Notes: generated by a model from the letters alone, not told the origin. A DNA stretch of 64,000 nt from an uncultured bacterium (GCA_963848965.1 CAWKFG010000001.1:579181-643180), one strand, 5' to 3'. Shown: positions 4,863 to 41,331, numbered from the stretch's first letter. A program made the numbers and translations.

Positions 4863-4917
4863 TGTTAAATTTTAAACAGAGAATGGTCAAATTTTGAACA
4901 GTTGGTGGTCAAATTTA
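4863..4917 (+). promoter_or_regulatory. Three 22-bp-spaced operator-like boxes (tgttaaattttaaaca / ggtcaaattttgaaca / ggtcaaatttac)
   Basis: Boxes start at 4863, 4885 and 4907, directly before the ATG at 4920. Conserved at 11164-11219. Confidence 0.6.
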
Positions 4918-4919
4918 CG

Positions 4920-6149
4920 ATGTTTCATAGAAATATAAAAGAAAAACTAGAAAAAGCTCTTTCCTTTAGCCCTGTTGTGCTACTTACAGGAGCGCGTCAG
5001 ACAGGGAAGTCAACCTTAATGACAGCAATTGCGCAAGAGCATAAATACTCCTTCCATACTTTTGATAGCCTAACAACATTGGCAGCAGCATCGAGTGATC
5101 CTTCTGGCTTTATAGCTGGTATCCAAAAACCAGCAATTTTAGATGAAGTTCAACGAATACCAGAGATATTTTTACCTATAAAGCATGAAGTAGATCAAAA
5201 TAGGCAGCCTGGGCAGTTTGCTCTTACTGGATCTGCAAATCCACTCCTTATTCCCACACTTGGCGATACCCTTGCAGGCAGAATAAGTATTTTAGAATTG
5301 TTTCCTCTGTCTCAAGGAGAACTTTTAGGCGTTTTTGATGATTTTATAGATTTTGTATTTGGTGATACATATCCAGCTATAACTAGAATCGCAAGAAAGG
5401 ATCTTATAGAAAAAATAATGGTTGGAGGCTATCCAAATGTTCAATTACTAGATGAGGAAATGCGAGATCAGTGGTTTGATAATTACATTACAACTGTTTT
5501 AAAGCGCGAAGTAACAGAGCTTGCAAAAATTGAAGGCATAGTTGAGTTTCCTCAATTATTGCGCCTTTTGGCAACACGTGCGGGAACTATTTTAAATGTC
5601 TCAGAACTTTCTCGTGCAAGCATGCTGGTTAACACTACACTTCGTCGCTACCTTGCACTTCTACAAACCGTATTTCTAGTGAACTTTTTACCTTCATGGG
5701 GTATTAATTTAAGTAAGCGATTGGTGAAATCTCCAAAAGTATATCTTGTAGATACCGGTCTCCTGAGCTATTTATTGGGTATCAATCATGATAGACTTTC
5801 TGTCGATGTCACCCTAGTGGGCAATCTCTTTGAAAACTTCGTAATAATGGAGCTCAAAAAACAAGCGACCTGGTCAAAACGACGTGTTAATCTTTATTAT
5901 TATCGAACACTGGATGGTATTGAAGTTGATCTTGTACTAGAAGATAAGGCAGGAAACATTGTAGGCATTGAAGTAAAAGCATCAGAAACAGTAACTGCTG
6001 CAGACTTTAAGGGTCTTAAACATATGCAAGAAACCTATAAAAATAGATTCCTAAAAGGAATTGTATTATATGCAGGCAGTGATAATGTTCCTTTTGGCAA
6101 AAAACTCTTTGCATGGCCTCTCTCCTGCCTGTGGGCAAAACCTGCTTGA
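4920..6149 (+). CDS. AAA+ ATPase, AAA_14 + DUF4143 family, with C-terminal PD-(D/E)XK-like motif
   Basis: Walker A GARQTGKS, Walker B ILDEVQ, LTGSA, GGYP, K..KVY..D.G, EVDLVLE...GIEVK. Confidence 0.92.
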   Translation: MFHRNIKEKLEKALSFSPVVLLTGARQTGKSTLMTAIAQEHKYSFHTFDSLTTLAAASSDPSGFIAGIQKPAILDEVQRIPEIFLPIKHEVDQNRQPGQFALTGSANPLLIPTLGDTLAGRISILELFPLSQGELLGVFDDFIDFVFGDTYPAITRIARKDLIEKIMVGGYPNVQLLDEEMRDQWFDNYITTVLKREVTELAKIEGIVEFPQLLRLLATRAGTILNVSELSRASMLVNTTLRRYLALLQTVFLVNFLPSWGINLSKRLVKSPKVYLVDTGLLSYLLGINHDRLSVDVTLVGNLFENFVIMELKKQATWSKRRVNLYYYRTLDGIEVDLVLEDKAGNIVGIEVKASETVTAADFKGLKHMQETYKNRFLKGIVLYAGSDNVPFGKKLFAWPLSCLWAKPA

Positions 6150-10934: not shown

Positions 10935-11221
10935 TTTATTTGTTCTTTCCTACTTCTATACCGTATAATTTTATTGTAGATCAACGTTCTCTTTATATGT
11001 TCCAGCACTATTAAAAAAGGTAGAGCAAAATGGCTCAACAACACAATGCAATCGCAGAACTTAGATCTTTTAACGCAATTATTTATTATACCTTTGATTT
11101 ATAACTATGACAAATTCAGCAGCACTATTTTTAATGTAGAGTGTTGTATAAATTACCATTATGTGTTAAAATTTTAAACATGCAGAGGTCAAATTTTGAA
11201 CATTTGGTGGTCAAATTTACG

Positions 11222-12457
11222 ATGATTTATAGGAATATAAAAGAAAAACTAGAAAAAGCCCTTTCTTTCAGTCCTGTTGTACTTTTAACAGGAGCTCGCC
11301 AAACAGGAAAGTCAACCTTAATGGCAGCAATTGCACAAGAACGTAATTATTCTTTCTATACATTCGATAGTTTAACAACATTGGCAGCAGCAACAAACGA
11401 TCCTTCCGGTTTTATAACTGGCATTCAAAAGCCAACAATTTTAGATGAAGTTCAACGGATACCAGAAATATTTCTACCTATAAAGCATGAAGTAGACCGA
11501 AATAGACAGCCAGGGCAGTTTGCTCTTACAGGATCTGCCAATCCGCTCCTTATTCCCACACTTGGCGATACTCTTGCAGGAAGAATAAGCATCTTAGAGC
11601 TATTTCCTTTATCACAAGGGGAACTTTTAGGCATTTTTGATGATTTTATAGATCTAGCGTTTAGCGATAAGCATCCTATTATAGCTCAAGTCTCGAAAAA
11701 AGAGCTTATAGAAAAAATGATAATTGGAGGATATCCAAATGTTCAATCAATAGACGAAGAGCAGCGAGACCAATGGTTTGATAATTATATTACGACAGTT
11801 TTAAAGCGAGAGATAAGCGAGCTTGCAAAAATAGAAGGTATAGTTGAATTTCCTCAATTATTGAGACTTTTAGCAACGCGAGCCGGGACTATCTTAAACG
11901 CCTCAGAACTTTCTCGTGCAAGCATGCTTGTAAATACTACTCTTCGTCGCTACCTTGCACTTTTGCAGACGGTATTCTTAGTTGGCTTTTTACCTTCATG
12001 GGGTGTTAACTTAAGTAAGCGATTAGTCAAATCTCCGAAAGTATATCTGGTAGATACTGGCCTGCTAAGCTACTTATTGGGTATCAATCATGATAGACTT
12101 TCTGTTGATAGCGCGCTTATAGGCAATCTTTTTGAAAACTTTGTTGTAATGGAGTTGAAGAAGCAAGCTACGTGGTCAAAAAGGCGTGTTACCCTTTATT
12201 ATTATCGAACACTCGATGGTATTGAAGTTGATATTGTTCTAGAAGATAAAGCAGGAAACATTGTAGGAATTGAAGTTAAGGCCTCAGAAACAGTGACTGC
12301 TATGGATTTCAAAGGCCTTAAACATATGCAAGAAACATATAAAGATAGATTTTTAAAAGGAATTGTACTATACGCAGGCAGCGAAGGCGTTCCTTTTGGC
12401 AAGAACCTCTTTGCTTGGCCTATTTCATCTTTGTGGGCAAAAAATACGCAAATTTAA
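11222..12457 (+). CDS. AAA_14 + DUF4143 ATPase, close paralog of 4920..6149
   Basis: Same motifs and long identical peptide stretches. The upstream boxes are also conserved. ORF track starts at 11141. Confidence 0.92.
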   Translation: MIYRNIKEKLEKALSFSPVVLLTGARQTGKSTLMAAIAQERNYSFYTFDSLTTLAAATNDPSGFITGIQKPTILDEVQRIPEIFLPIKHEVDRNRQPGQFALTGSANPLLIPTLGDTLAGRISILELFPLSQGELLGIFDDFIDLAFSDKHPIIAQVSKKELIEKMIIGGYPNVQSIDEEQRDQWFDNYITTVLKREISELAKIEGIVEFPQLLRLLATRAGTILNASELSRASMLVNTTLRRYLALLQTVFLVGFLPSWGVNLSKRLVKSPKVYLVDTGLLSYLLGINHDRLSVDSALIGNLFENFVVMELKKQATWSKRRVTLYYYRTLDGIEVDIVLEDKAGNIVGIEVKASETVTAMDFKGLKHMQETYKDRFLKGIVLYAGSEGVPFGKNLFAWPISSLWAKNTQI

Positions 12458-16037: not shown

Positions 16038-17351
16038 ATGGAATTTAAGCAAGTTTTTAAAGAGCTTATTACTGATTTTCATGCCTCTCATCTTCCACAT
16101 CCCATTAAAAGAGCTATAGCATTGCCAATTTTACCTGATAATGTGCGTAAAGCTTTTGTATTTATAGGCATGAGACGGAGTGGCAAAACTTGGACTTTAT
16201 ATCAAATTATGCAAGACTTGATAGCGCAAGGTATAGAGTTTTCTAAAATACTTTATCTTAATTTTGAAGATGAGCGTCTTATTGATATGCAGAAAGAGAA
16301 CCTTCAAGATATCCTTATGGCTTACTTTGAACTTTATCCCCAGTATTTAAACAGATCGGATATTTACTTTTTCTTTGATGAAATTCATGAGGTGAGCGGA
16401 TGGGAAAAATTTATTCGAAGGCTTTTGGATCAAGAAAAGGTTCAAATTTATGTAACTGGTTCTTCTTGCAAAATGTTAAGTAAGGAAATTGCCTCTGCTT
16501 TAAGAGGGAGAACCTTTGTTCAAGAGATCTTCCCCTTTAGCTTTAGTGAATATTTACAGAAACTCAACATAGCAATTCCCAAAACAATTGGAACAAAAGC
16601 AAAGATTGAGCTCGTACATCATCTTAGGAATTTTCTGCAAAGGGGCGGCTTTCCTGAAGTTATAGGCACTTCTCCAGAAGTCCATCGTCAAATCCTTCAA
16701 GAATATATTTCTTCAGTTATCTATCGTGATATTATTGACCGTTATGGTATAAGTAACTCACATGTTTTAAAACAGCTTCTAACCCATTGTTTAAGAAATA
16801 GCTCAAGAATTTTTAGTATCAATAAAATGTATCTTGCCTTCAAATCAATGGGATATGAAATTAGCAAAAATACGCTCTACGACTATATGTCCTATTTTGA
16901 AGATGCATACTGCGTTTTTTCTTTAAATAAATTTGATTTATCTTATCGGAAAGCTGCCTATAGTATGAAAAAGATATTTGCTATTGACCAAGGGCTTATA
17001 ACCGCAGTAACAATGGCAAGCCATTTTGATTTATCCGCTCAATTAGAAACGGCAGTGTTTGCGCATTTTCGTCGTAAATCGAGCACTATCAGTTACTATC
17101 GATCCAAGGATGATAAAGAGGTGGATTTTCTTATAGTGCTAGTAGATCATTCTATCTCTCTTTTTCAAGTTTGCCTATCATTAAAAGATGAGAATACTAA
17201 ACAGAGAGAAATTAATTCTCTTTTAATTGCAATGAAGGAACTCAAGGTAGGTTATGGTACTATTATAACTCTTGAAGAAGAAGGAGAAATTCAAAGTCCA
17301 GAGGGCATAATCTCTCTGATACCTGCTTTTAAAATACTCCTTGAGCAATGA
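16038..17351 (+). CDS. AAA_14 + DUF4143 ATPase (second subfamily)
   Basis: GMRRSGKT, YLNFEDER, FFFDEIH, VTGSS, GGFP, EVDF...FQVC. Confidence 0.92.
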   Translation: MEFKQVFKELITDFHASHLPHPIKRAIALPILPDNVRKAFVFIGMRRSGKTWTLYQIMQDLIAQGIEFSKILYLNFEDERLIDMQKENLQDILMAYFELYPQYLNRSDIYFFFDEIHEVSGWEKFIRRLLDQEKVQIYVTGSSCKMLSKEIASALRGRTFVQEIFPFSFSEYLQKLNIAIPKTIGTKAKIELVHHLRNFLQRGGFPEVIGTSPEVHRQILQEYISSVIYRDIIDRYGISNSHVLKQLLTHCLRNSSRIFSINKMYLAFKSMGYEISKNTLYDYMSYFEDAYCVFSLNKFDLSYRKAAYSMKKIFAIDQGLITAVTMASHFDLSAQLETAVFAHFRRKSSTISYYRSKDDKEVDFLIVLVDHSISLFQVCLSLKDENTKQREINSLLIAMKELKVGYGTIITLEEEGEIQSPEGIISLIPAFKILLEQ

Positions 17352-23024: not shown

Positions 23025-24266
23025 CTAGTGCTGAGATTCTTTTACATGAGGCATACACACTTTTTTATGATTAGGCCAATCTTTAGCTTGGCATTCTATA
23101 CTGCAATAACGTACCTTTTTGCACTTTCCGCAGACCTGAATCTTGTGAACTGTTCGAGTATTAAGACAGACCTGGCATGAACGGACGTCTTTTTCGGGGT
23201 TATTTTTCAAGAAGTTTTCAATTACGTTTACTAATCCTCTAGAAAAGGCATTTATGTCCCCATGAACGTGAAAGAGCATAGTCCGCAACTGCTTTCTTAG
23301 TGTTATTCCTTTGACCATAGAATACCCTAGCTTTTTTAAAACGGGGATAAAACCTTGTATATGATCTTCGCCACCGATAAAGATAACTCGCCAGTATGCT
23401 GCTTTTTGAGCATCAAGGATTTTATCAAGAAAGCATGCGTTTGCAAAGTTTTCATCAAGCTCAGAAAGTAAGATTTTAGCTATAACCTCAGTGTAAAGTG
23501 TAAGTGCTTGCTGAGCGGTAGAGCATCGATTCAACAGCTCAACACTGGCAATTTCAAAAAGCTGCTGAAGATCTTTATCTCTTGTAAGAAAGAAATACGC
23601 TTTGTTCTTGGCTTCTTGGTATTCAGTTAAAGTACGCATAAAAAAGGGCCCAACATCTTTTTCATTGCGGTATTTTTTGACAAGATCTTCAAGGATGCGC
23701 TGATTTTTTTCAAGGTCGTTAAGATATACTTCAACAGTAACATCTTGAGTGAGATTCTGTGCTTGAGCATTCAGTTGATTTTTAAAGTCTGTCCAGAAAG
23801 TAGAAAATGAATCGCACTCAAAAGATTTTTCAATAACATCTAAAATGGTTTGTGCTACTCCTGTAAGGACACTACTTGGTCTTGATCGAGGCTCGTAAGG
23901 GATAAACTTTATTTTATCCAAAAGTTGAGACGCTTGCTTACTAAGTTCCTTAAATGTAGTATGTATAATGACATTTGAAGCTAAGGTATTCTTTTGTATA
24001 GCAAAGAAATAGGGCTCTTCCATTGCTAAAATACAGGGAATAGGAGCTGAGATTGTTTCTTGCTTTACGAGGTTTGTTAAAGTGTTTACATGCAAAATGT
24101 TAGTAGTATACAACAGCTCTGAAGAATGCTCTATATCACCTAAAAGAAGAATCTGCTGTCCCTGCTCGTTAGTAAAGAGGTAGTATGAAATAAAAGGATA
24201 CACCGATATAGGTATGCAAGAAAGAGAAAATAACATAGTGATTAATAAGTAGCGCACTTTATTCAT
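23025..24266 (-). CDS. Secreted protein with C-terminal MYND zinc finger
   Basis: CQVC...CGKCKKVRYCSIECQAKDWPNHKKVC matches zf-MYND. Hydrophobic N-terminus. Confidence 0.88.
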   Translation of the reverse strand: MNKVRYLLITMLFSLSCIPISVYPFISYYLFTNEQGQQILLLGDIEHSSELLYTTNILHVNTLTNLVKQETISAPIPCILAMEEPYFFAIQKNTLASNVIIHTTFKELSKQASQLLDKIKFIPYEPRSRPSSVLTGVAQTILDVIEKSFECDSFSTFWTDFKNQLNAQAQNLTQDVTVEVYLNDLEKNQRILEDLVKKYRNEKDVGPFFMRTLTEYQEAKNKAYFFLTRDKDLQQLFEIASVELLNRCSTAQQALTLYTEVIAKILLSELDENFANACFLDKILDAQKAAYWRVIFIGGEDHIQGFIPVLKKLGYSMVKGITLRKQLRTMLFHVHGDINAFSRGLVNVIENFLKNNPEKDVRSCQVCLNTRTVHKIQVCGKCKKVRYCSIECQAKDWPNHKKVCMPHVKESQH

Positions 24267-31027: not shown

Positions 31028-32257
31028 TTATTCTGCCCATAACGATGTGATAGGCAAAGCATAGAAATTACCACCAAAGGGAATACTTTGTGATCCGGTA
31101 TACAACACTATACCCGCCATAAACCTTTCTTGAGCACTTTCCTGCAAGTATCGCAATCCCTTAAAGTCCTGTTGAGTAACGGTACTACTACTTTTAATCT
31201 CTATCCCTATAATACGCCCTGCTGCATCCTCAAGCACAAGATCTACTTCAACTCCCGTCTGGGTCCTAAAGTGAAAAAGCTGCACTTGGGTCGTACTCCA
31301 TGACGCTTGCTTTTTCAATTCCATCACTACAAAATTTTCAACAATACTTCCCATTAATTTACCATCAATAGCTGCTCGCTCAGTATCTATTCCCAGCAAA
31401 TACGCTAAAATACCCGAATCAATAAGATAGAGTTTAGATGATTTAACAAGACGCTTTCCTATATTAACACTCCAAGGCTGAAGCAGGCAAACAATAAAGA
31501 GCGCTTCTAAAAGAGATAAATATCTATGCAATGTAGTATTTGGTATTCCTACTGCTCGCGAAAGCTCTGCAACGTTAAGAAGATTTGCTGCTCGAGTTGC
31601 TAGTAACTGTAAGATTCTAGGAAACTCTGCTAATGCTGTAACATGTGCAAGATCCTGCACATCTTTTTGCAAAAGAGCTGTAATATATGAATTGAACCAG
31701 AGCCGTCTTTCTTCTTCCCCAAAAGCCTGTACTGCCGGATACCCCCCTTTCAGGATTCTTTCATAAAGCTCTTGCCGAGAAAGATTGTCCGCTTTGTAGG
31801 GAACCTCTCCCTTAAACAGACGATCAATAAAGACCTCTTTTCTTCCAAGCAGCTCTCCCTGCGAAAGTGGCAATAACGTCAGTATAATCATACGCCCCGC
31901 TAGAGAGTCTCCCAGTTTAGGAATAAGGAGCGGATTTGTAGATCCTGTTAATGCAAATCTCCCTGGTTCTCTATGCTGATCTACATCATATTTTATTGCC
32001 AAAAATAGTTCTGGTACCCGCTGAACTTCATCTAATATTACTGGCTTAGGCAGTCTCGCAACAAATCCCATAGGATCTGCTTTAGCAGCTGATAATATAC
32101 TCAGATCATCAAATGAAGCAGAAAAGTATCCTCTATCTTGTGCTACCTCATTCATTAATGTAGTTTTACCTGTCTGTCGAGCACCCGTAAGCAGCACTAC
32201 TGGGCTTATTTTAAGAGCCTTCTCAAGCTTCGGTTTACTATTACGACGAAAGAACAT
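31028..32257 (-). CDS. AAA_14 + DUF4143 ATPase (more distant relative of 4920 and 11222)
   Basis: GARQTGKT, ILDEVQ, GGYP, EVDLVLE...GIEIK. ORF track starts at 32284. Confidence 0.92.
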   Translation of the reverse strand: MFFRRNSKPKLEKALKISPVVLLTGARQTGKTTLMNEVAQDRGYFSASFDDLSILSAAKADPMGFVARLPKPVILDEVQRVPELFLAIKYDVDQHREPGRFALTGSTNPLLIPKLGDSLAGRMIILTLLPLSQGELLGRKEVFIDRLFKGEVPYKADNLSRQELYERILKGGYPAVQAFGEEERRLWFNSYITALLQKDVQDLAHVTALAEFPRILQLLATRAANLLNVAELSRAVGIPNTTLHRYLSLLEALFIVCLLQPWSVNIGKRLVKSSKLYLIDSGILAYLLGIDTERAAIDGKLMGSIVENFVVMELKKQASWSTTQVQLFHFRTQTGVEVDLVLEDAAGRIIGIEIKSSSTVTQQDFKGLRYLQESAQERFMAGIVLYTGSQSIPFGGNFYALPITSLWAE

Positions 32258-32267
32258 TCCTATCCTT

Positions 32268-32462
32268 AGTAAAAAATTTACCATTATGTGGTAAAAATTC
32301 TACCATCCTATGACAATATTTACAATAAATCCTTAAAAATATCTCATAAAACACCTTTGACACCTATTAAATACTCCTTTTGACTACTTTTACACAAGAG
32401 TAGCGTAAATATCTACCACCCATTGGTAAAATGTTTTACCAATACGAGAAAAATATCACCAC
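32268..32462 (-). promoter_or_regulatory. Two trios of about 21-22-bp-spaced imperfect palindromes (GGTAAA..TTTACC)
   Basis: Boxes near 32269, 32291 and 32312, and near 32405, 32425 and 32446. Confidence 0.55.
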
Positions 32463-32537: not shown

Positions 32538-32670
32538 GATTTCTTTAACTTAGTATTGATGAAAATTATAGGACACAGATAATGAAGAAGCGTTTTTTAC
32601 AACACTCCCTGTTTATAAAATTATGCGACGATTATAATTTTATAAACATCAGAACTCAAAAAGAGAAACC

Positions 32671-33476
32671 TTAGCTGCTTCTTTCCGCTGGCTCTTCGCT
32701 GTCCGATTCTGTAAGATATTCTATAGGCTTAGTGTCAACCATCACCTGAGGCTCTTGTGCATCCAAACGAAGAGGCTCTGGGGCACTGCCAACTATAGAT
32801 GAACCAGTAAGCATTCCCGACTCTTGATGCCAAGTCCATGTTGTATCATATGATTTATACTGTTCTTTAGGCTTAGGGCACTCTTTGCGCTTATTAAAAA
32901 GTGCTCGTGATTTAGCCTGAAAGTGACCTCGCTGTTTTCCAAGATGCTGTTCTTTAAAATGGCGCCTAATAGCATCAAGTGACTTAGCTCGTACAATACA
33001 TTCTGGCCACTTACAAGCGTAATCCTGTGCAATACGATGCTTATCTATATGTTTTATAAAATACGAAAGGCTTATTAACTCCAACGCACATTGAGGACAC
33101 CTATAATCACCATCTATCTTATGTAATTCTAGCACATGTTCTCTTAAATCTTGAATATCCTTAAACTTTTGGCCACAAGGACAATTATAATTGTCTATCT
33201 CATAGAAATTTCCTGAAGAAAGCGCCTTCTGCGCATCTAATAGAGATGCATCACTGCGTACACTTAAAGATTGGCCTGCTGCAAGTAAGTTCTGAACAAC
33301 AGACCTTGATACATGCTCCTTTGGTTCATATGAAGAAAGAACATCTGCTTTTCGCTTACCTAATAGTGACTCCGCTTGCATTGGCTCTGCTTGTACAGCC
33401 CGCTCAAGCTCCATTGCTTGTATTTGCCGCACAGAATCTACCGCATGAATATGCATATGCAAAGTACTTTTCTCAT
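32671..33476 (-). CDS. Secreted C2H2 zinc-finger protein (3 fingers); signal peptide probably frameshifted near 33444
   Basis: CPC..HVLELH, CPQC..HIDKH, CKWPEC..HFKEQH. ATG 33476 gives MRKVLCICIFM, which joins AVDSVRQIQAME if one G is added. ORF track gives 32671..33462. Confidence 0.82.
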
Positions 33477-33536
33477 GAAAAAGATCTTTTTATAAAATTA
33501 TGCGACAATAATAAATAGATCCTTAAAGATTCAAAG

Positions 33537-34903
33537 TTACTTTTCAAAAAAGTCCAACAACTCGTCAAATTCCTGCCCAGAAAGATCATCATACGAACAA
33601 GAAACATCTCCGAAATCAATATCAGACAACAATGAGTCTATTTGATCAGCTTGCAATCCTTCAAAAAGGTTACGATCATCAAACAGTCCATCATCCATTA
33701 TCTTAGCCTCGTTGTGCAAACTTGGAAATTCTTCAAGACGAGGTTTCGTTCTCCTTGAGGGTAACCGAGACAATGATATTTTTGGACTATGCTCTTCTTT
33801 TAAATGTTTACAAAGAGCATCAAACGATTTAGACTTCCTCTTACATCCTGGCCATTTACAACTATAGTCTTTTGCAGTGCGATGTGTATCCAAATGGCTT
33901 AATAAATGCTTAGGGCTAATGAACTCTTTATTACATTTTGGACAGTTAAATTTATTTCCTAGTTCATGCCGCTCCATTATATGATTTCTTAAACTTTTTC
34001 TATCACCAAACTTCTCTCCACAAGGACAATTACAATGCGCTACCTCGTAAAAATCTGCGTCAGATAACAATTTATCTCCATCTGCCGCATTCTCTTTTGT
34101 ACTTAAAGATTGAGCTGCATCTACTAATATTTGAGTAAAAGAAGGTAACCCCTCTTCCTCTTTTTTTCTTGTGGTTTCATAGGACATCCTAGAAGAACGT
34201 GCTGCATAATAGCTACTAACTTATAAGCATTATTACACCGAGAACACTTATACATCTCTCCTACTTTATGCTTTTCCCTTATATGATCTCTCAAGCTGAG
34301 TTGAGCACCAAACTTCTCTCCACAAGTACAATTACAAGGAAATCCCTTTTTCTCTTTTTTCTCTTGTGATCTCATATGACATCTTAGAGCATGCTGTATA
34401 ATACCTGCATATGTCCTATAAGCATTATTGCATCCGGGCACTTTACAAATATAGCTCTTTTGAAAGTGATCTTTATCTATATGACTTATAAAACTTATAA
34501 GACGCACAAATGCTTGTTCACATTGAGGGCATTTATACTCTTTCCCTTTTTTATGCTGCTCTCTTATATGATCATTTAAACTTTCTATAGTATTAAACTT
34601 CCCTCCACAGACACAATTACAATGTGTTACCTTATAGAAATTTGATAAAAATAAATATTGGGCTCTATGTAACATTGCCGCACTATTCTGTACCCCTAAA
34701 GACTCCGCCCCATCAAGCAAGGTTTGAACAAGAGGCACTGCTCCTTTTTCCTTTTGCATTTCTTCAGTTCGCTTTCTCTTTTGTTGCTGCACCTGAATAG
34801 GACCTTCTAACGAACTTTTTTGACCCTCTGCTTGTTCCATACAATACAAAAAGCAGGTAAAGAACATGTTCATAGCATATAGTAGCATAATCGCATAGGT
34901 CAT
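33537..34903 (-). CDS. Secreted C2H2 zinc-finger protein split by a -1 shift at an A7 run (ORFs 34124..34936 and 33537..34187)
   Basis: One extra A at 34161-34167 gives QEKKEEEGLPS, matching the upstream repeat QEKKEKKGFP. Signal ...YCME, acidic C-terminal tail. Confidence 0.78.
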
Positions 34904-34955
34904 CTTTATTTCCCTTTTATTTCTTTTTATAATCAAAGGCTTTGGAGCACATCAT

Positions 34956-37900
34956 CTATTTTTTGTCTTCTAAAAACTGCAGAATATCAAAACCGTCTGA
35001 TTCGGTCTCATCAAAAAGAAAGCGAGAATCATCATCCTCTTGAAGCGCTTGCGGTACTTCGTTCAAACTCTCAGAGCGCAATTCATCATTAAGCCAGCTC
35101 AGAAAATCTTCTTGTTTATCGTGAACTAAAAAATCACCAACAGAAAGCTCATTTGTAACACTATCTACAACAGTATAAGCATCCATATCTAACGCTGAAT
35201 CCTCGTTCATAGCAAACGACTCTTTTTCATGAGAAGCATCCTTATCAGTAACTTCGTTATCTTCATGAGAAAGCTCTTGTATACCCTCGTTTTCAAGTTT
35301 CGTCTTTTTTATCCTATGTTCTTGGAAATACTTCTTATTCATCTCCTGTCTTTGGAGATATTTCTTATAATGATCGTGTACTTCAACTTCTTGACGCGTG
35401 GGGAAAGTTGTGTTGCACGTAACACAGTGATTGTGCATTTTAAAAGCATGGACCACTAATCCACGATAGAATAACTTAGAACAAAGTGGACACTTACTCT
35501 TTTTCCTTTCTGGAATATTAAGCAGCTTCTTCCCTTCTTTATGTTGCTTAAGATGTAGATTCAAACTCCGCTCTTCATAAAACTTTCTGTTACAATGAGG
35601 CCAGTTACAAGAATATGTTTTATTATCATTATTATGACGAGCCTCAAAGTGCATCATAAGCCAAGAAGGATTATCCATTACTGTAGCACAGCCTGGACAC
35701 TTATAGCGCTTTTCATCTGTTTTATGAACCTCTATTATATGCTGTCTTAACAACTCTTTACTTGTAAATCTTTCTTTACATGCACAATCAAAGCTTTTTC
35801 TGTTATAAATACTCTTTAAAGACGGCAAATCAGATTTCTCTTCTAAGCTTGAATCATGATTTTGCTGCATTAAGAACTGGGTTTCGTTCATAGATGTTTG
35901 CATAGTCGATATCTCTGGAACGACAATTTGTGTATTTGTTGAAAGAGCATTCAGCACGTCAAAAGTAGAAGCAATATCTTTAGACGATAAATATGCATTA
36001 TTTTGTAGATGCACTAACTCACCTGCGTCAAGCAAAGTTTGTGTAACCTGAACTTCTGCGCCGCCACTCTCAGCGTCTGAAGAGAGAGCATCTGCCTTGC
36101 GCTTACCTACCACCCGTTCTTTAACAACATCATGTTCAGCTTTCTCTGTTTCATCATACTGCTCTGTTTTAGCAGGGCTAGAAACAGGATCTTTTCTATC
36201 TGCGTTTGGCACATCATCAAAAGTATCATACCTTTGAAAAGTTGGTACACAATCATCTACATTTTGCATTGGATCGTTAAGCCAGTCTACAAAGCTTATA
36301 TTAGCACTAGGAGGAGTGCTTTTAGTCGTTTCTTGAGCTACTGTATCAAAAGGTGATGTTTGTCCTCTTTTTCTCTTTTTTACATCACTTACATTATTCT
36401 TATGCGTATCTAAGTGAACCATCAATTTACTAGGGCTAGGAAATAATTTATTACAAGAAGGACATACATATTTTTGCTCTTGTTTATGAGAATTTATAAC
36501 ATGTGATCTTAAATTTTCGTCGTCTTCAAACTTTTCACCACATACACACTCAAATCTATTTATTACCAAAGCACCTTGCTCGCTAGATGGCACAAGTTGC
36601 ATTTCTTTTGTAGAAGAAAAATCTTGGTTATTCTGATTTTGATCAGACAACAATATTTTATCTCCTTCTTGCTTTCCAGAGGCTACCTGAGAGGGCTTGT
36701 TATGATGCTTATGAGATTGACTTTCTTCAACAGTAGTAAATGTTTTGTTACACGTTAAACACTGCTTATGTATAGTAATAAAATGCTTTTCAAGATTCCG
36801 ACGAGTATTAAACCTTTTGGTACATTCTTTACAAGAAAAGTTTTTTGATCGCTTTCCATTATTCCCATGTTTTGCAATGTGCCTTTGCCTTTTGTATAGC
36901 GAGGTAAACACGCACAAGCATCCGTTCCACGTACAAGCATATAGTTTACGACTTTTATCATGACTATAGATGTGCTCCGTAAATGCAAAAAGCTCTCTCA
37001 TTCCCTTACTACATTGAGGGCAAACATACTTTGACTCTTGATAGTGAGAGTAGACAAGGTGCTCTTTTAAGCCTTCTTCGCTAGCAAACCTTTGACCACA
37101 GGGACATGCAAGATCTAATGGAAGAGATTGTAGGCCAGCTTGCTCCTGTATATGAGCACCATTATTGCCCCCTGAAACAGTCAAAGAGTTACCGCTCTCA
37201 ATTAAGGTCTGAATCAAAGAAGTTCCCTTCTCTTGCTCACTCTGGATATCATCGTCGTTGGTTTTTCCTCTCTCTCTATCAACGACAGTTATAGATGGCA
37301 TCACATTTTCGCGCACCTTTGAAGCATCCTGACTTTCAGGGAAAGATAAAGTTAATTGCACATCTTTGGCACCTTGAGATTCCAGGCCGGTAGTGGGGTC
37401 AGGATGCACTTCCTTTCTTTTCCTAGATTGATAAAAACATTCATGCATTCTTATGTCCATTCCACTAGCAAATGTTCTTCCACAGTGCAAACAGTAGAAA
37501 TGTGACTCAATAAAGTGTGTTTGCAGTACTGCTGCTCTATAAAATTCTTTATTACAGCCTGGCCATCTACATGTATAAATTCTACTATTAGTATGAGCTT
37601 CCATATGTCTAAGACAAAGAGAAGGATACTTAAGTCTCAGATTACAGTGAGGACATATATAACCTTTTGAATCTTTATGAGCACTTATTACATGCTGTGT
37701 CAACTGTTCTTGTCTATTAAACTTTTCCCCACAAAGACAATCAAAGTTATTTACATCATAAAAAGGTGAATCGGTTTCTCCTCTCTCTCTATCAACGATA
37801 GTTATAGATGGCACCACATTTTCGCGCACCTTTGAAGCGCCCTGACTTTCAGGAGAAGATAAAGTTAATTGCATATCCTTGGTTTCTTGAGAGTCCATGT

Positions 37901-38585
37901 GGGTAGTAGCTTCAGGATGCACTACCTTTCTTTTCTTATGAGCTTTCATATGCTTAAGATAACGAGAAGGATATTCAAGTCGCAGATTACAGCGAGGACA
38001 TATATAACCTTGTGGATCTTTATGAGCACTTATTATATGCTGTTTTAACTGTTTTTGTCTATTAAACTTTTCCCCACAAATACAGTCAAAATCATTTACA
38101 TCATAAAGGGGTAAAGAAGCTACAAGTTTTTCACTAACTGCAGACATAGGAGCTATCTGTACCTGTTGACTAACATCTACTAATCCTTGCACAAGTGATA
38201 TGCTCCTGTTGACATTCTGTGCACTCTCAAGAAAGTCATCCATCTTACGCTTACCAGATACTTGAGGTTGCTGAACAGAAACAGGAGATTTCGAATGAGT
38301 TTGTATATGCCTCATAAAATCAGGTAGAGCCTGCAAATACGTAATACACTCTTCTGCTGGACATTCATAATAGCTTCCTTCAGGCGCTTTTATAAAATGC
38401 TCCTTTATAATATGCTCTGAAAGACTCTTCTTATTTTCAAACATCTGCTTACAAACACAATTATGAAGTATCGCAAGCAAAGGTTTGCTTACAAAACTTT
38501 GTTCCTTCTCTGTCTGTTCCATACTATACAAGAAGCCTGCAGAAAAGAGAGCAATAATAACTATTATTACATATATTTTATTCAT
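34956..38585 (-). CDS. Large secreted multi-C2H2 zinc-finger protein (1209 aa) with internal duplications
   Basis: Signal ...YSME, many CxC/CxxC...HxxxH fingers, KRK motifs, acidic C-terminus. Confidence 0.92.
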   Translation of the reverse strand: MNKIYVIIVIIALFSAGFLYSMEQTEKEQSFVSKPLLAILHNCVCKQMFENKKSLSEHIIKEHFIKAPEGSYYECPAEECITYLQALPDFMRHIQTHSKSPVSVQQPQVSGKRKMDDFLESAQNVNRSISLVQGLVDVSQQVQIAPMSAVSEKLVASLPLYDVNDFDCICGEKFNRQKQLKQHIISAHKDPQGYICPRCNLRLEYPSRYLKHMKAHKKRKVVHPEATTHMDSQETKDMQLTLSSPESQGASKVRENVVPSITIVDRERGETDSPFYDVNNFDCLCGEKFNRQEQLTQHVISAHKDSKGYICPHCNLRLKYPSLCLRHMEAHTNSRIYTCRWPGCNKEFYRAAVLQTHFIESHFYCLHCGRTFASGMDIRMHECFYQSRKRKEVHPDPTTGLESQGAKDVQLTLSFPESQDASKVRENVMPSITVVDRERGKTNDDDIQSEQEKGTSLIQTLIESGNSLTVSGGNNGAHIQEQAGLQSLPLDLACPCGQRFASEEGLKEHLVYSHYQESKYVCPQCSKGMRELFAFTEHIYSHDKSRKLYACTWNGCLCVFTSLYKRQRHIAKHGNNGKRSKNFSCKECTKRFNTRRNLEKHFITIHKQCLTCNKTFTTVEESQSHKHHNKPSQVASGKQEGDKILLSDQNQNNQDFSSTKEMQLVPSSEQGALVINRFECVCGEKFEDDENLRSHVINSHKQEQKYVCPSCNKLFPSPSKLMVHLDTHKNNVSDVKKRKRGQTSPFDTVAQETTKSTPPSANISFVDWLNDPMQNVDDCVPTFQRYDTFDDVPNADRKDPVSSPAKTEQYDETEKAEHDVVKERVVGKRKADALSSDAESGGAEVQVTQTLLDAGELVHLQNNAYLSSKDIASTFDVLNALSTNTQIVVPEISTMQTSMNETQFLMQQNHDSSLEEKSDLPSLKSIYNRKSFDCACKERFTSKELLRQHIIEVHKTDEKRYKCPGCATVMDNPSWLMMHFEARHNNDNKTYSCNWPHCNRKFYEERSLNLHLKQHKEGKKLLNIPERKKSKCPLCSKLFYRGLVVHAFKMHNHCVTCNTTFPTRQEVEVHDHYKKYLQRQEMNKKYFQEHRIKKTKLENEGIQELSHEDNEVTDKDASHEKESFAMNEDSALDMDAYTVVDSVTNELSVGDFLVHDKQEDFLSWLNDELRSESLNEVPQALQEDDDSRFLFDETESDGFDILQFLEDKK
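37261..37930. repeat. Internal direct repeats in the large zinc-finger gene
   Basis: About 37261-37415 matches about 37773-37930 (linker). About 37600-37765 matches about 37945-38106 (finger pair). Confidence 0.85.
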
Positions 38586-38612
38586 ATTTTTATTTTGACT
38601 ATATTTTATTGT

Positions 38613-40463
38613 TTAACTATCTTTTTCTCCTAAAAATTGCAAAACATCGTCAGAGGTAGCAATAATTTCTGTTTCATCCTGCTCTGTTTTAGCAGGGCTA
38701 GATACTCTATCTTGCATATTTATATTTAACACATCACTAAAATTGTTAGCGCTTTGAAAATTATATAAAGCATTCATGTCCTGCGCTGGATCGTTAAGCC
38801 AATCTACAAAGCCTAGATCAGTATTACTAATGACATCTTTAGTCATTTCTTTAGCTGATACATTTTGAGAAAGTTCAGAAGAAATTATTGGCCTTTTTTT
38901 CTTACGTTTTACATTATTACTTTTATGGGTATTCAGGTGGTCTCTCATTTGTCGCAATGAGCTGAAAACTTTCGAACAACTATCCCAATCACATGCATAA
39001 CTTACATTACTTCTATGACGATCTAAATGATACAACAACTTTATAGGTCGCCCTTTAAAGTGAGCTTCACAAGCAGGACAAGTATACCCTGAAGCTTGCT
39101 TATGAAAGCCTACAATATGTCTCTTTAAATTCTCTTCATATTTAAACTTTTCACCGCATACACAATCAAACTTATTTATTTTAAACTTTCTTATTCCAGG
39201 TTTTTTTATTTCATTTTGATTTTCATCAGAGGAGATCTTTTGTTCTAGTCCATCTTGCTCTTTAGGCGAGCTATTGCTATTTAATATCTGCAAAGATCGG
39301 CTTGACTGCATTAAAGTCTGAATAAGAGAAGCTTTATGTATATCTTGTTCATCACTAGAAAGAGCATCTGCTTTACGCTTACTACCAACTATAACCTCCT
39401 CAGCTGCTCCTATCTCTGCTTGTTGTATATGAGTTGCAGGTTGCTCCTGAATGTGCATAGTATAAGAAAGCTCTTTAGTACCTTGATCGCTATCGGAATA
39501 TGATGTTTCCTCTCTTTTACGCTTTTCAGAAGATATTCTAGAGTTTCCTTTGTAATGCTCATGAGATTGCATCTCTTCACTAGTAGAAAAAGTTTCATTA
39601 CAAGTAAAACATTGCTTATGTGCACTAAAAAAGTGTTCCTCAAGATACGTTTTCTGCCAAAACCTACAACCACATTTTCTACATAAAAAATTCCCTACTA
39701 ACACATTAGATTTTTCGTGCTTTTTTTTAACATGCGCTTGTCTCTCTCTTATTGAAGAAAAAACTTTCAGGCACCCTTGCACAGGACAGGTATAACACTT
39801 ATCATTAATACTATGAATATCCATGTGCCCTATAAACGTAACAAGCCCTGCAATAGACTTACTACATTTAGGACAAATATACTGCGATCCTTGGCAATGA
39901 GAACGTATAATATGTTCTTTTAAGCCATCTTCATTAATAAATTTTTGGTCACAGGCACATTCAAAGCCTACTTGCTCATGCGCATGAGCAACACTGTTGC
40001 TCTCAGATACAAACAAAGAGCTGCTACTATTAATTAAGGTCTGCGCCAAAGAAGTTTTTCTCTCTTTTTCGCTTAAGCTGTTCTTTTCAGATGCCTGTAC
40101 TTCTTGCCTTACTAGAGCTTGTTCAGGCTCAGCGGCTTGGAACAGCTGTCCAGAAGGAGCAACGCTTGTATGAGTTTGCATATGTTGCATAAAACCAGGA
40201 AGTGTTTTTACGTACTCACAACATACTTGCGCTGGACATACATAGTAATCACCTTCTGGCGCTTTTATAAAATGCTCATTTATAGCGTGCTGCAAAAGTT
40301 GCATTTTATTAGAAAACGATTGCCTACATGCACATGGGTGTACGATAGCAAGCGCTACCGGCACGCTAAGCTTGCTAGACTTATTCTCTGCAGGAACCAT
40401 TCCATAGAGAATACTGTCAATCCTAAAAAGCATAAAAACCAGCACAATATGATAATAGTTCAT
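38613..40463 (-). CDS. Secreted multi-C2H2 zinc-finger protein, paralog of 34956..38585
   Basis: Shared EHFIKAPEG, FVDWLNDP and SSPAKTEQ blocks. KRKKKR basic patch. Confidence 0.92.
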   Translation of the reverse strand: MNYYHIVLVFMLFRIDSILYGMVPAENKSSKLSVPVALAIVHPCACRQSFSNKMQLLQHAINEHFIKAPEGDYYVCPAQVCCEYVKTLPGFMQHMQTHTSVAPSGQLFQAAEPEQALVRQEVQASEKNSLSEKERKTSLAQTLINSSSSLFVSESNSVAHAHEQVGFECACDQKFINEDGLKEHIIRSHCQGSQYICPKCSKSIAGLVTFIGHMDIHSINDKCYTCPVQGCLKVFSSIRERQAHVKKKHEKSNVLVGNFLCRKCGCRFWQKTYLEEHFFSAHKQCFTCNETFSTSEEMQSHEHYKGNSRISSEKRKREETSYSDSDQGTKELSYTMHIQEQPATHIQQAEIGAAEEVIVGSKRKADALSSDEQDIHKASLIQTLMQSSRSLQILNSNSSPKEQDGLEQKISSDENQNEIKKPGIRKFKINKFDCVCGEKFKYEENLKRHIVGFHKQASGYTCPACEAHFKGRPIKLLYHLDRHRSNVSYACDWDSCSKVFSSLRQMRDHLNTHKSNNVKRKKKRPIISSELSQNVSAKEMTKDVISNTDLGFVDWLNDPAQDMNALYNFQSANNFSDVLNINMQDRVSSPAKTEQDETEIIATSDDVLQFLGEKDS

Positions 40464-40608: not shown

Positions 40609-41331
40609 TTATTGTTTTTCTTTGCTTTGTAAAAGCATGTGGTAGATCTTTGTACTTACCGAGCCTTCTCCCTGTTGACAAGCAAGATTTTGAGCAAACC
40701 AAAGCTCTCTATCAGAAACAGGAGCACTATACTTAAGCAAAAGTTCTACTAAAGAAAGATCTTTTCTACCTACTGCTATACTCAGAAAGCTATACAACAC
40801 TGGATATTTGCAAGGACAACCAGTAAAAGGATCTATTGAAGTAAGAATTTCCATGGTTGGACTAACAACACCCGTACTTATATAATTTTTTATCTCCTCA
40901 ACGACTAAAGTACTACCTGGCGCCTTAAGAAGCTCTACAAATTCCTTGTTAAAGAGTATATAAGCATGCCACCAAGAAGTTGCTGCCTCAGTGCCTATCT
41001 CTTTCACCACCTCCAAAATCATATTTGAATATACTCCTCTACAACCTCTTGAAAAGACTCGCGCCAAATGGGTAATAATATCCCCCACTTGCCGAGCGTC
41101 ACACAAAGCTTTAGAGTGATACTTTTTAAGCCAACTTACATAGTTTGATAAAGTACTCTTTTCAAGAGCTGGATTAAAAGGAAAATAACGCGCTAATTCG
41201 TCAAAGAGTTCTCTTGGAAGAAACGCTAAATATGAATGCTCTCGTTTTTCTTTGGATAAATAAGCAAGCCCCTTAAGAGAAAAGGTACATAAGATCGCCA
41301 TACTTAAAAAGACATATTTATTATTTTTCAT
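40609..41331 (-). CDS. Secreted hypothetical protein with YLAFLPREL motif and a degenerate ankyrin-like C-terminus
   Basis: Hydrophobic N-terminus. LSIAVGRKDLSLVELLLKYSA resembles one ankyrin repeat. Confidence 0.8.
   Translation of the reverse strand: MKNNKYVFLSMAILCTFSLKGLAYLSKEKREHSYLAFLPRELFDELARYFPFNPALEKSTLSNYVSWLKKYHSKALCDARQVGDIITHLARVFSRGCRGVYSNMILEVVKEIGTEAATSWWHAYILFNKEFVELLKAPGSTLVVEEIKNYISTGVVSPTMEILTSIDPFTGCPCKYPVLYSFLSIAVGRKDLSLVELLLKYSAPVSDRELWFAQNLACQQGEGSVSTKIYHMLLQSKEKQ

Follow-up and report, generated by a model that had tools for sequence, protein, structure and literature searches.

A 64,000-nucleotide stretch of DNA from an uncultured bacterium (GCA_963848965.1, CAWKFG010000001.1:579181-643180; hereafter the window) contains, at positions 32671-40463, a tandem family of genes encoding C2H2 zinc-finger proteins, most of which begin with a putative export leader. 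By its gene content the contig is bacterial and belongs to the Dependentiae, obligate intracellular parasites of protists; its RecA is 77-66% identical to those of metagenome-assembled genomes named Candidatus Dependentiae or Babeliales. We infer that the finger proteins are exported through the Sec system, are directed at the host, enter its nucleus, and there bind DNA and recruit the transcription machinery. We give this chain as a whole about even chances of being right. Export to the host appears more probable than the full chain, and a role specifically as "activator" less so.

The repeated three-finger module

The segment holds five co-oriented, tandem open reading frames (ORFs) on the minus strand. 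By our ORF reading of the window they amount to four genes, the number given in the original prediction, with C1 and C2 being the two parts of a single frame-broken gene:

38613-40463, minus strand: gene A, 616 amino acids, 9 fingers; marginal leader, N-terminal two-finger module, two helix-plus-triplet modules, extra fingers, KRKKKR, FVDWLND and an acidic tail
34956-38585, minus strand: gene B, 1209 amino acids, 17 fingers; clear leader, N-terminal module, three triplets, two doublets, extra fingers, FVDWLND, FLSWLND and an acidic tail
34124-34936, minus strand: ORF C1, the 5' part of gene C, 270 amino acids, 5 fingers; leader, KRKR, helix, one triplet, one doublet, KKRKRG
33537-34187, minus strand: ORF C2, the 3' part of gene C in the -1 frame, 216 amino acids, 3 fingers; helix, one triplet, acidic tail
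32671-33462, minus strand: gene D, 263 amino acids, 3 fingers; a single module (GKRKAD, helix, triplet), no leader

A regular-expression count gave 37 C2H2-pattern fingers across the five ORFs. In a Pfam scan at E<=0.01, A (49.4 bits), B (98.2 bits, E 1.3e-28), C1 (34.1 bits) and C2 (33.6 bits) scored above the curated cut-off of 25.2 bits for PF00096 (zf-C2H2), confirming the arrays that had been predicted. Gene D fell under this cut-off (18.8 bits), but its third finger passed that of FOXP-CC, and D shares 46% identity with C2. Pairwise BLASTP and alignments indicated that the paralogues are 24-46% identical to each other and that all four genes have a module in common, consisting of a basic cluster, an amphipathic helix 10-25 residues after it, and then C-x-C, CPxC and C-x4-C fingers. 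The basic cluster reads GKRKAD-LSS in A, B (twice) and D, and KRKR or KKRKR elsewhere. A second finger follows each of the 13 C-x-C fingers; it is of the C-x2-C type, except that the N-terminal modules of A and B have a C-x4-C finger in this place. Full triplets number eight (two in A, three in B, and one each in C1, C2 and D), each closed by a C-x4-C finger that has tryptophan at its third position in six of the eight cases, and the five doublets include the N-terminal C-x-C plus C-x4-C pair common to A and B. The helix precedes seven of the eight triplets, and its eighth copy precedes the doublet B_u1. The unit of CxC, CPxC and CxWxxC fingers behind a helix that had been described earlier is therefore recovered, at the following positions:

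39711-39971, minus strand: triplet A_u1 (C-x-C, CPKC and CPVQGC), 115.2 bits on the unit profile
38919-39176, minus strand: triplet A_u2, by alignment and unit profile
37494-37751, minus strand: triplet B_u2, by alignment and unit profile
36861-37118, minus strand: triplet B_u3, by alignment and unit profile
35535-35798, minus strand: triplet B_u5, by alignment and unit profile
34370-34627, minus strand: triplet C1_u1, by alignment and unit profile
33783-34040, minus strand: triplet C2_u1, the folded sequence, by alignment and structure prediction
32938-33195, minus strand: triplet D_u1, by alignment and unit profile
33232-33363, minus strand: pre-finger segment of gene D, the GKRKADVLSS cluster and then the helix, by alignment
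39981-40112, 39258-39389, 38127-38258, 37149-37280, 35979-36110, 34664-34795 and 34071-34187, minus strand: the seven other copies of the pre-finger segment

Alignment of the eight triplets, which are 27-45% identical to the first unit, revealed 14 invariant columns, including 11 of the 12 zinc ligands. The first finger is spaced C-x1-C-x12-H-x4-H in all 13 instances, outside the C-x2-4-C-x12-H-x3-5-H spacing seen in the second, third and extra fingers. Both linkers span seven residues from the last histidine to the next cysteine, which is the canonical length, and the units are basic (isoelectric point 7.8-9.2, net charge +1 to +8) in proteins that are acidic elsewhere.

AlphaFold2, run on the eight-unit alignment, predicted three beta-beta-alpha fingers with a mean pLDDT of 82.2, including a beta-hairpin and helix for the C-x-C finger. 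When the whole module was modeled, the fingers reached pLDDT 77-92, while the upstream helix was predicted at pLDDT <50 and unpacked on the fingers, consistent with a helix that is free for docking and not part of the structure. The unit profile matched 141 PDB sequences at E<=0.001; the best of these are DNA-bound arrays (Aart, 2.1e-34), and three fingers aligned in register with Aart, PRDM9, ZNF568, TFIIIA, CTCF, GLI, WT1, YY1 and Zif268, with HMMER setting a one-residue gap in the first-finger knuckle. Foldseek retrieved the same DNA-bound arrays with a probability of 0.85-1.00 and TM-scores of 0.29-0.46, the low TM-scores being attributable to flexible linkers modeled without DNA. Judged by these matches, the triplet units are probably of the DNA-binding type.

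Leaders, basic clusters, acidic tails and the helix

Leaders were called by hydropathy heuristics throughout, and comparisons were made with a crude collection of non-overlapping ORFs from the genome (1357 ORFs, 483,757 residues). The original prediction assigned a signal peptide to each gene; those of B and C1 are clear, that of A is marginal, and D has none:

40401-40463, minus strand: leader of A, 21 residues, ending in ILYG before M; fails the strict heuristic
38523-38585, minus strand: leader of B, 21 residues, from MNK to FLYS before ME; clear and classical
34841-34903, minus strand: leader of C1, 21 residues from the ATG at 34903, ending in FLYC before ME; clear

The leader of A has no basic n-region, and R and D follow after 8-9 hydrophobic residues. 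For C1, the probable start is the ATG at 34903 (residue 12), which is preceded by the Shine-Dalgarno (SD)-like AAGGGAAA. The c-region motif of these leaders agrees with the -3/-1 rule of signal peptidase I, the residue at -2 being bulky. Written as [LIFMVY]Y[SGACT]M, it was found at residues 9-35 of 49 ORFs, compared to 4 for a control range (residues 41-67), so that A, B and C1 have it in common with about 49 ORFs of the genome, including genes on four other contigs. The heuristic marks 18 of 21 finger-pattern ORFs as leader-like, compared to 534 of all 1357 ORFs (39%). The invariant methionine at +1 is unusual and could reflect a special peptidase preference, or an internal start giving rise to a non-exported isoform. 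Examples of the motif, [LIFMVY]-Y-[SGACT] followed by M-[EQ], lie at window positions 38523-38585, 40401-40463 and 41523-41590, and junctions of a small residue followed by M-E occur likewise in finger proteins of other Dependentiae.

Genes for signal peptidase I, for three secretins and for two ATPases of the type II secretion/type IV pilus kind are present in the genome. The secretins are three large tandem ORFs at G000:C4:767163-774663 (open frames of 796-1153 amino acids) and are a candidate outer-membrane exit for a large Sec secretome. No VirB4 was found in the genome; type III secretion genes were not searched for. For Chromulinavorax, a cultured member of the Dependentiae, Deeg et al. 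2019 (PMC6561590) report signal peptides on 44% of coding sequences, the Sec system as the likely export route, secreted ankyrin proteins as presumed effectors, and residence in the host cytoplasm.

The basic clusters named in the original prediction are present and enriched relative to the proteome. K[KR]x[KR] occurs at 6.25 per 1000 residues in the family and 1.19 in the proteome (~5-fold), and [KR]4 at 4.30 and 0.29 (~15-fold), while lysine content differs only slightly (8.6% compared to 7.2%). The three acidic-hydrophobic tails, and the FVDWLND and FLSWLND motifs of the two largest proteins, were likewise found as quoted:

38616-38648, minus strand: acidic hydrophobic tail of A, DVLQFLGEKDS
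34959-34988, minus strand: acidic hydrophobic tail of B, DILQFLEDKK
33540-33569, minus strand: acidic hydrophobic tail of C2, FDELLDFFEK

Net charge over the last 30 residues is -6 in A, -8 in B, -9 in C2 and -7 in D. Across the proteome this value averages +0.97 (standard deviation 2.85), with 1.7% of ORFs at or below -6, placing the family tails in the most acidic 0.3-1.7%. Acidic activation domains combine a net acidic segment with a hydrophobic Phi-x-x-Phi-Phi motif, and VLQFL, ILQFL and LLDFF sit in the tails of A, B and C2, whose net charges run from -6 to -9; the C-terminus of D is acidic but without a hydrophobic motif. An acidic C-terminal end with Phi-x-x-Phi-Phi occurs in 21 of the 1357 ORFs, three of which are in the family. 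FVDWLND follows a KKRKR-type cluster in both A and B, and FLSWLND is a second such box in B. In sequence, the tails as well as the WLND boxes appear to conform to Phi-x-x-Phi-Phi, the pattern found in acidic activation domains.

The eight helices conform to Phi-Q-x-L-Phi-[DENQA]-small-small-x-x-[LV], with cores such as TQILVDAAQSL (C2), VQTLLDGAESL (C1) and IQTLIESGNSL (B). Sin3-interaction domains of the Mad1 type are amphipathic helices in which bulky hydrophobic residues flank two small ones. The core of the Mad1 peptide is IQMLLEAADYL (PMC5687616), and the domain consensus is Phi-X-X-Phi-X-A-A-X-X-Phi (PMC10163088). The module helix appears to resemble this domain closely, in a motif too short for significance alone, and a profile of the helix had no match in PDB sequences or Pfam at E<=10. 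We hold a docking role of Sin3 type to be unlikely. Since the helix resembles a Sin3-interaction motif, repression is as open as activation. The earlier framing of these proteins as activators is too narrow given this helix, and D has no activation-like tail.

Relatives and the case for a possible role in the host nucleus

As far as our searches reach, the family is private to this genome. In a word-indexed search for close relatives of A (5327 candidates), the sole match besides A was a Heimdallarchaeota finger protein (E 5.1e-5, 20% coverage). An exhaustive phmmer search with C2 gave 10705 hits, of which the best 150 comprised five of the genome's own paralogues and long generic poly-finger proteins; relatives below ~75 bits would lie hidden under these generic hits. 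Among the same best 150, no eukaryotic protein stood out as a specific relative or close donor. On a profile built from the eight units, the genome's own triplets scored 111-122 bits and two of its doublets 73-77 bits; the best score in 260 other Dependentiae genomes was 55.6 bits, compared to 54.9 bits for unrelated canonical fingers of this genome. Metagenome contig scans with A and B, in which only near-identical peptides are detectable, found no relative, and the ESM Atlas returned only generic C2H2 clusters, with one neighbor cluster from Nucleocytoviricota.

As a class, leader-bearing C2H2 arrays are common in the phylum rather than confined to this locus. Matches to the unit profile at E<=1e-5 were obtained in 62 of 261 Dependentiae genomes (48 of 189 of good quality), and to PF00096 in 11 of 41 relatives, this genome counted. 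At 16 foreign loci there are 24 ORFs with at least two fingers, about 16 of which have a hydrophobic leader (by eye) and one a C-x-C finger. Other leader-bearing C2H2 proteins of Dependentiae have the same leader style (a small residue, then M-E/Q) and also stand in tandem clusters; unlike the family, they are plain Krueppel-type arrays that reach at most 55.6 bits on the unit profile. The helix, WLND box and tail motifs were seen only in the family; the foreign ORFs were not scanned for them. The genome studied here has 72 PF00096 matches and, within 1.7 Mb, about 16 leader-bearing finger genes.

A second tandem finger cluster lies on the same contig, ~340 kb upstream of the window (G000:C1:233097-241863). 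Eight of its genes are built alike, each product having a leader (MKTLSLFLLCLF...IYSMQE), a stretch of acidic residues, an HKRQKKEH cluster and 5-12 fingers of the canonical TGEKPY kind. Across the 55 fingers, variability is highest in three columns, helix positions +3, +6 and -1, and because these are the classical base-contact positions, we consider the variability, as read from sequence, to be a signature of diversifying DNA recognition. Further ORFs with a leader and 2-5 fingers lie scattered at G000:C1:78219-79064, C1:200583-201740, C1:330542-332623 and C4:600065-600799, the last being weakly similar to the A_u2 unit (tblastn E 4.7e-6).

A host nuclear role would proceed as follows. The leader would take the unfolded, zinc-free protein through Sec, with signal peptidase I cutting after the hydrophobic-Tyr-small motif, and release into the host cell would occur by a secretin-type outer-membrane pathway or membrane vesicles. 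The fingers would then fold in the reducing, zinc-containing host cytosol, and the repeated KRK/KKRKR clusters would bind importin-alpha and bring about nuclear entry. There, the basic three-finger units with their canonical seven-residue linkers would bind host DNA, while the activation-like tails and F(V/L)xWLND boxes, together with the helix as a docking site for co-regulators, possibly Sin3, would recruit the host transcription machinery. The near-invariant zinc ligands, the 1209-codon open frame of gene B and a lower ratio of nonsynonymous to synonymous substitution (dN/dS) in fingers suggest that selection has been maintained. The dN/dS estimate comes from an internal tandem duplication in B (residues 158-262 and 273-433; window 37290-38111), of which one copy is without the third and fourth fingers, and is 0.42 for fingers and 0.93 for the linker, on small counts.

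In its broadest form, which we regard as a doubtful though not far-fetched extension, this reading would make the proteins the Dependentiae counterpart of the eukaryotic poly-zinc-finger repertoire, i.e., Sec-exported, fast-duplicating, programmable DNA binders for the protist nucleus. Each module of the present family would be self-contained, uniting a signal for import, a helix of Sin3 type for co-repressor docking and a three-finger reader, with activation-type tails at the protein ends, so that a single effector could switch off certain host loci and switch on others. In the sister cluster, the variable contact residues would then be the outcome of an arms race with the genome sequences of hosts, as with transcription activator-like effectors (TALEs) in plants or KRAB zinc-finger proteins in animals.

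Several observations weigh against a DNA-binding nuclear effector. The family linkers do not have the TGEKP sequence, and the C-x-C knuckle is rare, with 7 instances compared to 929 standard patterns among 33 top foreign hits. Finger 1 is acidic at many presumed contact residues and may not bind DNA at all. Variability within the focal family is not focused on the contact positions, in an alignment whose non-structural columns are saturated at eight divergent sequences. With 39-46% of the ORFs in the genome being leader-like, a leader alone is weak evidence of host delivery, and a Sec substrate would still have to cross the outer membrane and any host vacuole. The leader of A is atypical, D is leaderless and gene C is frameshifted; part of the family may be decaying. 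No orthologue was found in the 260 other Dependentiae genomes or the metagenome scans.

The atypical, partly acidic finger 1 and the non-TGEKP linkers would also suit host-directed proteins that are not transcription factors, with fingers that bind host RNA or proteins, or serve as decoys or scaffolds, in the cytoplasm or nucleus, and short motifs that dock otherwise. C2H2 fingers are capable of RNA and protein binding, WT1-RNA and Helios-CRBN complexes are among the structural matches, and there are weak Pfam matches to the UBZ, jaz (double-stranded RNA) and FOXP-CC types. We nevertheless consider such a role unlikely, as the three fingers, at seven-residue spacing, align in register with DNA-bound arrays, the units are basic, the enriched clusters resembling nuclear localization signals (NLSs) point to the nucleus, and the sister cluster displays the signature of variable DNA contacts.

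The abundance of leader-like ORFs implies that many of them must encode envelope proteins, and no dedicated injection system came to light, VirB4 being absent and type III genes falling outside the search. Both points would agree with finger proteins that stay in the bacterium, their N-terminus being a membrane anchor or periplasmic signal, in an envelope role or as bacterial regulators. Fingers with 4-8% cysteine are, however, ill-suited to an oxidizing periplasm, NLS-like clusters and acidic tails are without a role in a bacterium, and neighbors with the same leader are ankyrin, MYND and RBR-type proteins with eukaryotic targets; we hold retention in the bacterium to be distinctly improbable. 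We would rate just as low the possibility that the family is recently acquired or duplicated eukaryotic material in birth-and-death decay, with no maintained function. The frameshift in C, the missing leader and tail of D, the dN/dS of ~0.93 in the duplicated linker of B and the absence of orthologues are what such decay would leave, but the frames of 616 and 1209 codons are intact and long, ligands and non-finger motifs are conserved in paralogues whose identity is no more than 24-46%, the genes have gained bacterial leaders that carry the c-region motif of this genome, and the best 150 phmmer hits contain no close eukaryotic donor.

The window forms the final 64 kb of a 643-kb contig, in a genome of 1.73 Mb in five contigs that is 88.7% complete. 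Its positions 44-64 kb encode an ABC exporter, thioredoxin, Ogg, GT4, RNase Y, YmdB, IF-3, RecA, a SurA-like peptidyl-prolyl isomerase, MiaA and CarD, with RecA, IF-3, RNase Y and CarD located 4-24 kb from the finger genes. GC content is 33-42% throughout the window and 35-38% in the finger segment, like its flanks. Although the domain is typical of eukaryotes and one Atlas neighbor cluster comes from Nucleocytoviricota, a eukaryotic or giant-virus contaminant or misassembly is very unlikely, since the segment lies inside the contig between bacterial core genes of like GC, a Dependentiae RecA among them, has no introns, is tightly packed (19-74 nt gaps) with SD-like sites, and shares its leader motif with four other contigs. 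The original prediction had argued against misassembly in the same sense, and the contig and its GC content bear this out; its appeal to SD sites holds for A and the ATG of C1, which have AGGA/GGGA upstream, with none obvious at B or D.

Known counterparts, gene organization and genomic surroundings

Tandem C2H2 arrays are regarded as a eukaryotic invention. The three-finger factors of eukaryotes (WT1, EGR1/Zif268, KLF4, YY1, GLI, and TFIIIA fingers 1-3) are like the family in their beta-beta-alpha Cys2His2 fingers and seven-residue spacing, the C-x4-C third finger of the "CxWPGC" kind is like GLI and FOXP-type fingers, and eukaryotic factors likewise have basic clusters and acidic regions flanking the array. 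Unlike them, the family is bacterially encoded behind a Sec-type leader, has a C-x1-C, H-x4-H first finger and no TGEKP linkers, and is without KRAB, BTB, SCAN or any other eukaryotic partner domain in the Pfam scan. Among bacterial C2H2-type DNA-binding domains, Ros/MucR is, to our knowledge, the only one that is well known; it has one finger embedded in a larger globular fold and is cytoplasmic, unlike the family, and no ROS_MUCR match was found in the five ORFs (Pfam, E<=0.01).

TALEs are the textbook bacterial effectors that read host DNA sequence directly, and they consist of an N-terminal export signal, repeated DNA-recognition modules, NLS clusters and a C-terminal acidic activation region. 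The family has the same architectural logic as these Xanthomonas proteins, by analogy only, being known here from sequence. TALE repeats themselves, units of 33-35 residues with repeat-variable di-residues, had no match in the five ORFs (Pfam, E<=0.01), the leader is of Sec type rather than a type III signal, and the host would be a protist rather than a plant. According to the abstract of PMC5570926, direct targeting of host DNA is known for only one effector family. PMC12488382 describes TALE binding to importin-alpha, as well as MoHTR1 and MoHTR2 of Magnaporthe oryzae, secreted C2H2 effectors that enter the host nucleus and reprogram transcription, MoHTR2 having 110 amino acids and one finger domain. 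Compared by description only, MoHTR1/2 resemble the family in combining a signal peptide, a C2H2 finger and an NLS, but they are fungal and small, whereas the family is bacterial with 3-17 fingers arranged in modules.

Secreted C2H2 nuclear effectors (fungal MoHTR1/2) and DNA-reading bacterial effectors (TALEs) were therefore already known. New here are the private module with its C-x-C finger, the grammar of import, docking and tail motifs, the scale per genome, and the contact-residue variability of the sister cluster. No literature that connects Dependentiae or Babeliales to C2H2 fingers or to targeting of the nucleus was found in a search that left most subscription journals outside, and no mention of C2H2 was found among the papers surveyed on eukaryotic-like proteins of amoeba-associated bacteria. 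Should the proteins reach the nucleus, protist parasites of a little-studied phylum would, independently of TALEs, have turned the commonest DNA-reading domain of eukaryotes into an exported weapon, with delivery via the general Sec route instead of an injection machine. They would then offer a tractable entry into how Dependentiae take over their hosts, into how eukaryote-to-bacterium gene flow is domesticated by an added leader, NLS, and repression or activation motifs, and into whether the C-x-C knuckle finger is a functional zinc finger.

The family genes are separated by gaps of 27, 19 and 74 nt, and gene B maintains its 1209 open codons in a genome of 36% GC. Two further features lie in or next to the genes:

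34149-34167, minus strand: frame junction of gene C, an A7 run at 34161-34167 and a G4 run at 34149-34152
32585-32610, minus strand: terminator-like hairpin from a consensus scan, ~60 nt past the stop of D

C1 and C2 were assigned to one broken gene because they overlap by 64 nt with C2 in the -1 frame and because of the A7 and G4 runs. The break may be a homopolymer indel, an assembly error or ribosomal slippage. In the C1 frame the A7 run reads A AAA AAG, which, with C2 in the -1 frame, is an arrangement that we take to be that of a dnaX-type slippery site. The hairpin that follows does no better than shuffled sequence (z-score -1.08, with 23 of 200 shuffles folding as well) and starts without a spacer; programmed -1 frameshifting is neither supported nor excluded. 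The terminator scan found 2 sites compared to 5.2 expected, with none between genes A and D on the same strand, which is compatible with A-D forming one transcription unit. The promoter scan was uninformative (31 sites compared to 30.0 +/- 5.4 expected).

Positions 1-43 kb of the window are an island of leader-bearing, eukaryote-like proteins (ankyrin, zf-MYND, DnaJ, and ankyrin plus IBR). At least 14 leader-bearing ankyrin-repeat genes lie at 604-30626, and most of the island ankyrin proteins have, right after the leader, a box (T/S)YL(D/E)(L/I)LPQ(E/D)L(R/K)QE(L/I) of F-box-like look and no Pfam call. Four leaderless AAA_14/DUF4143 ATPase genes are interspersed (4902-6149, 11141-12457, 16038-17351 and 31028-32284) and may be tied to island turnover. 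MYND is a eukaryotic domain that binds transcriptional co-repressors in eukaryotes, and leader-bearing proteins ending in zf-MYND are encoded at window 23025-24266 (E 7.5e-11) and at G000:C1:202325-204544. A divergent neighbor of the finger genes, at 41523-43445, encodes a leader, ankyrin repeats and two IBR domains, a look-alike of RBR-type ubiquitin ligases; between it and the finger genes lies a leader-bearing ORF of 240 amino acids without a Pfam match (40609-41331).

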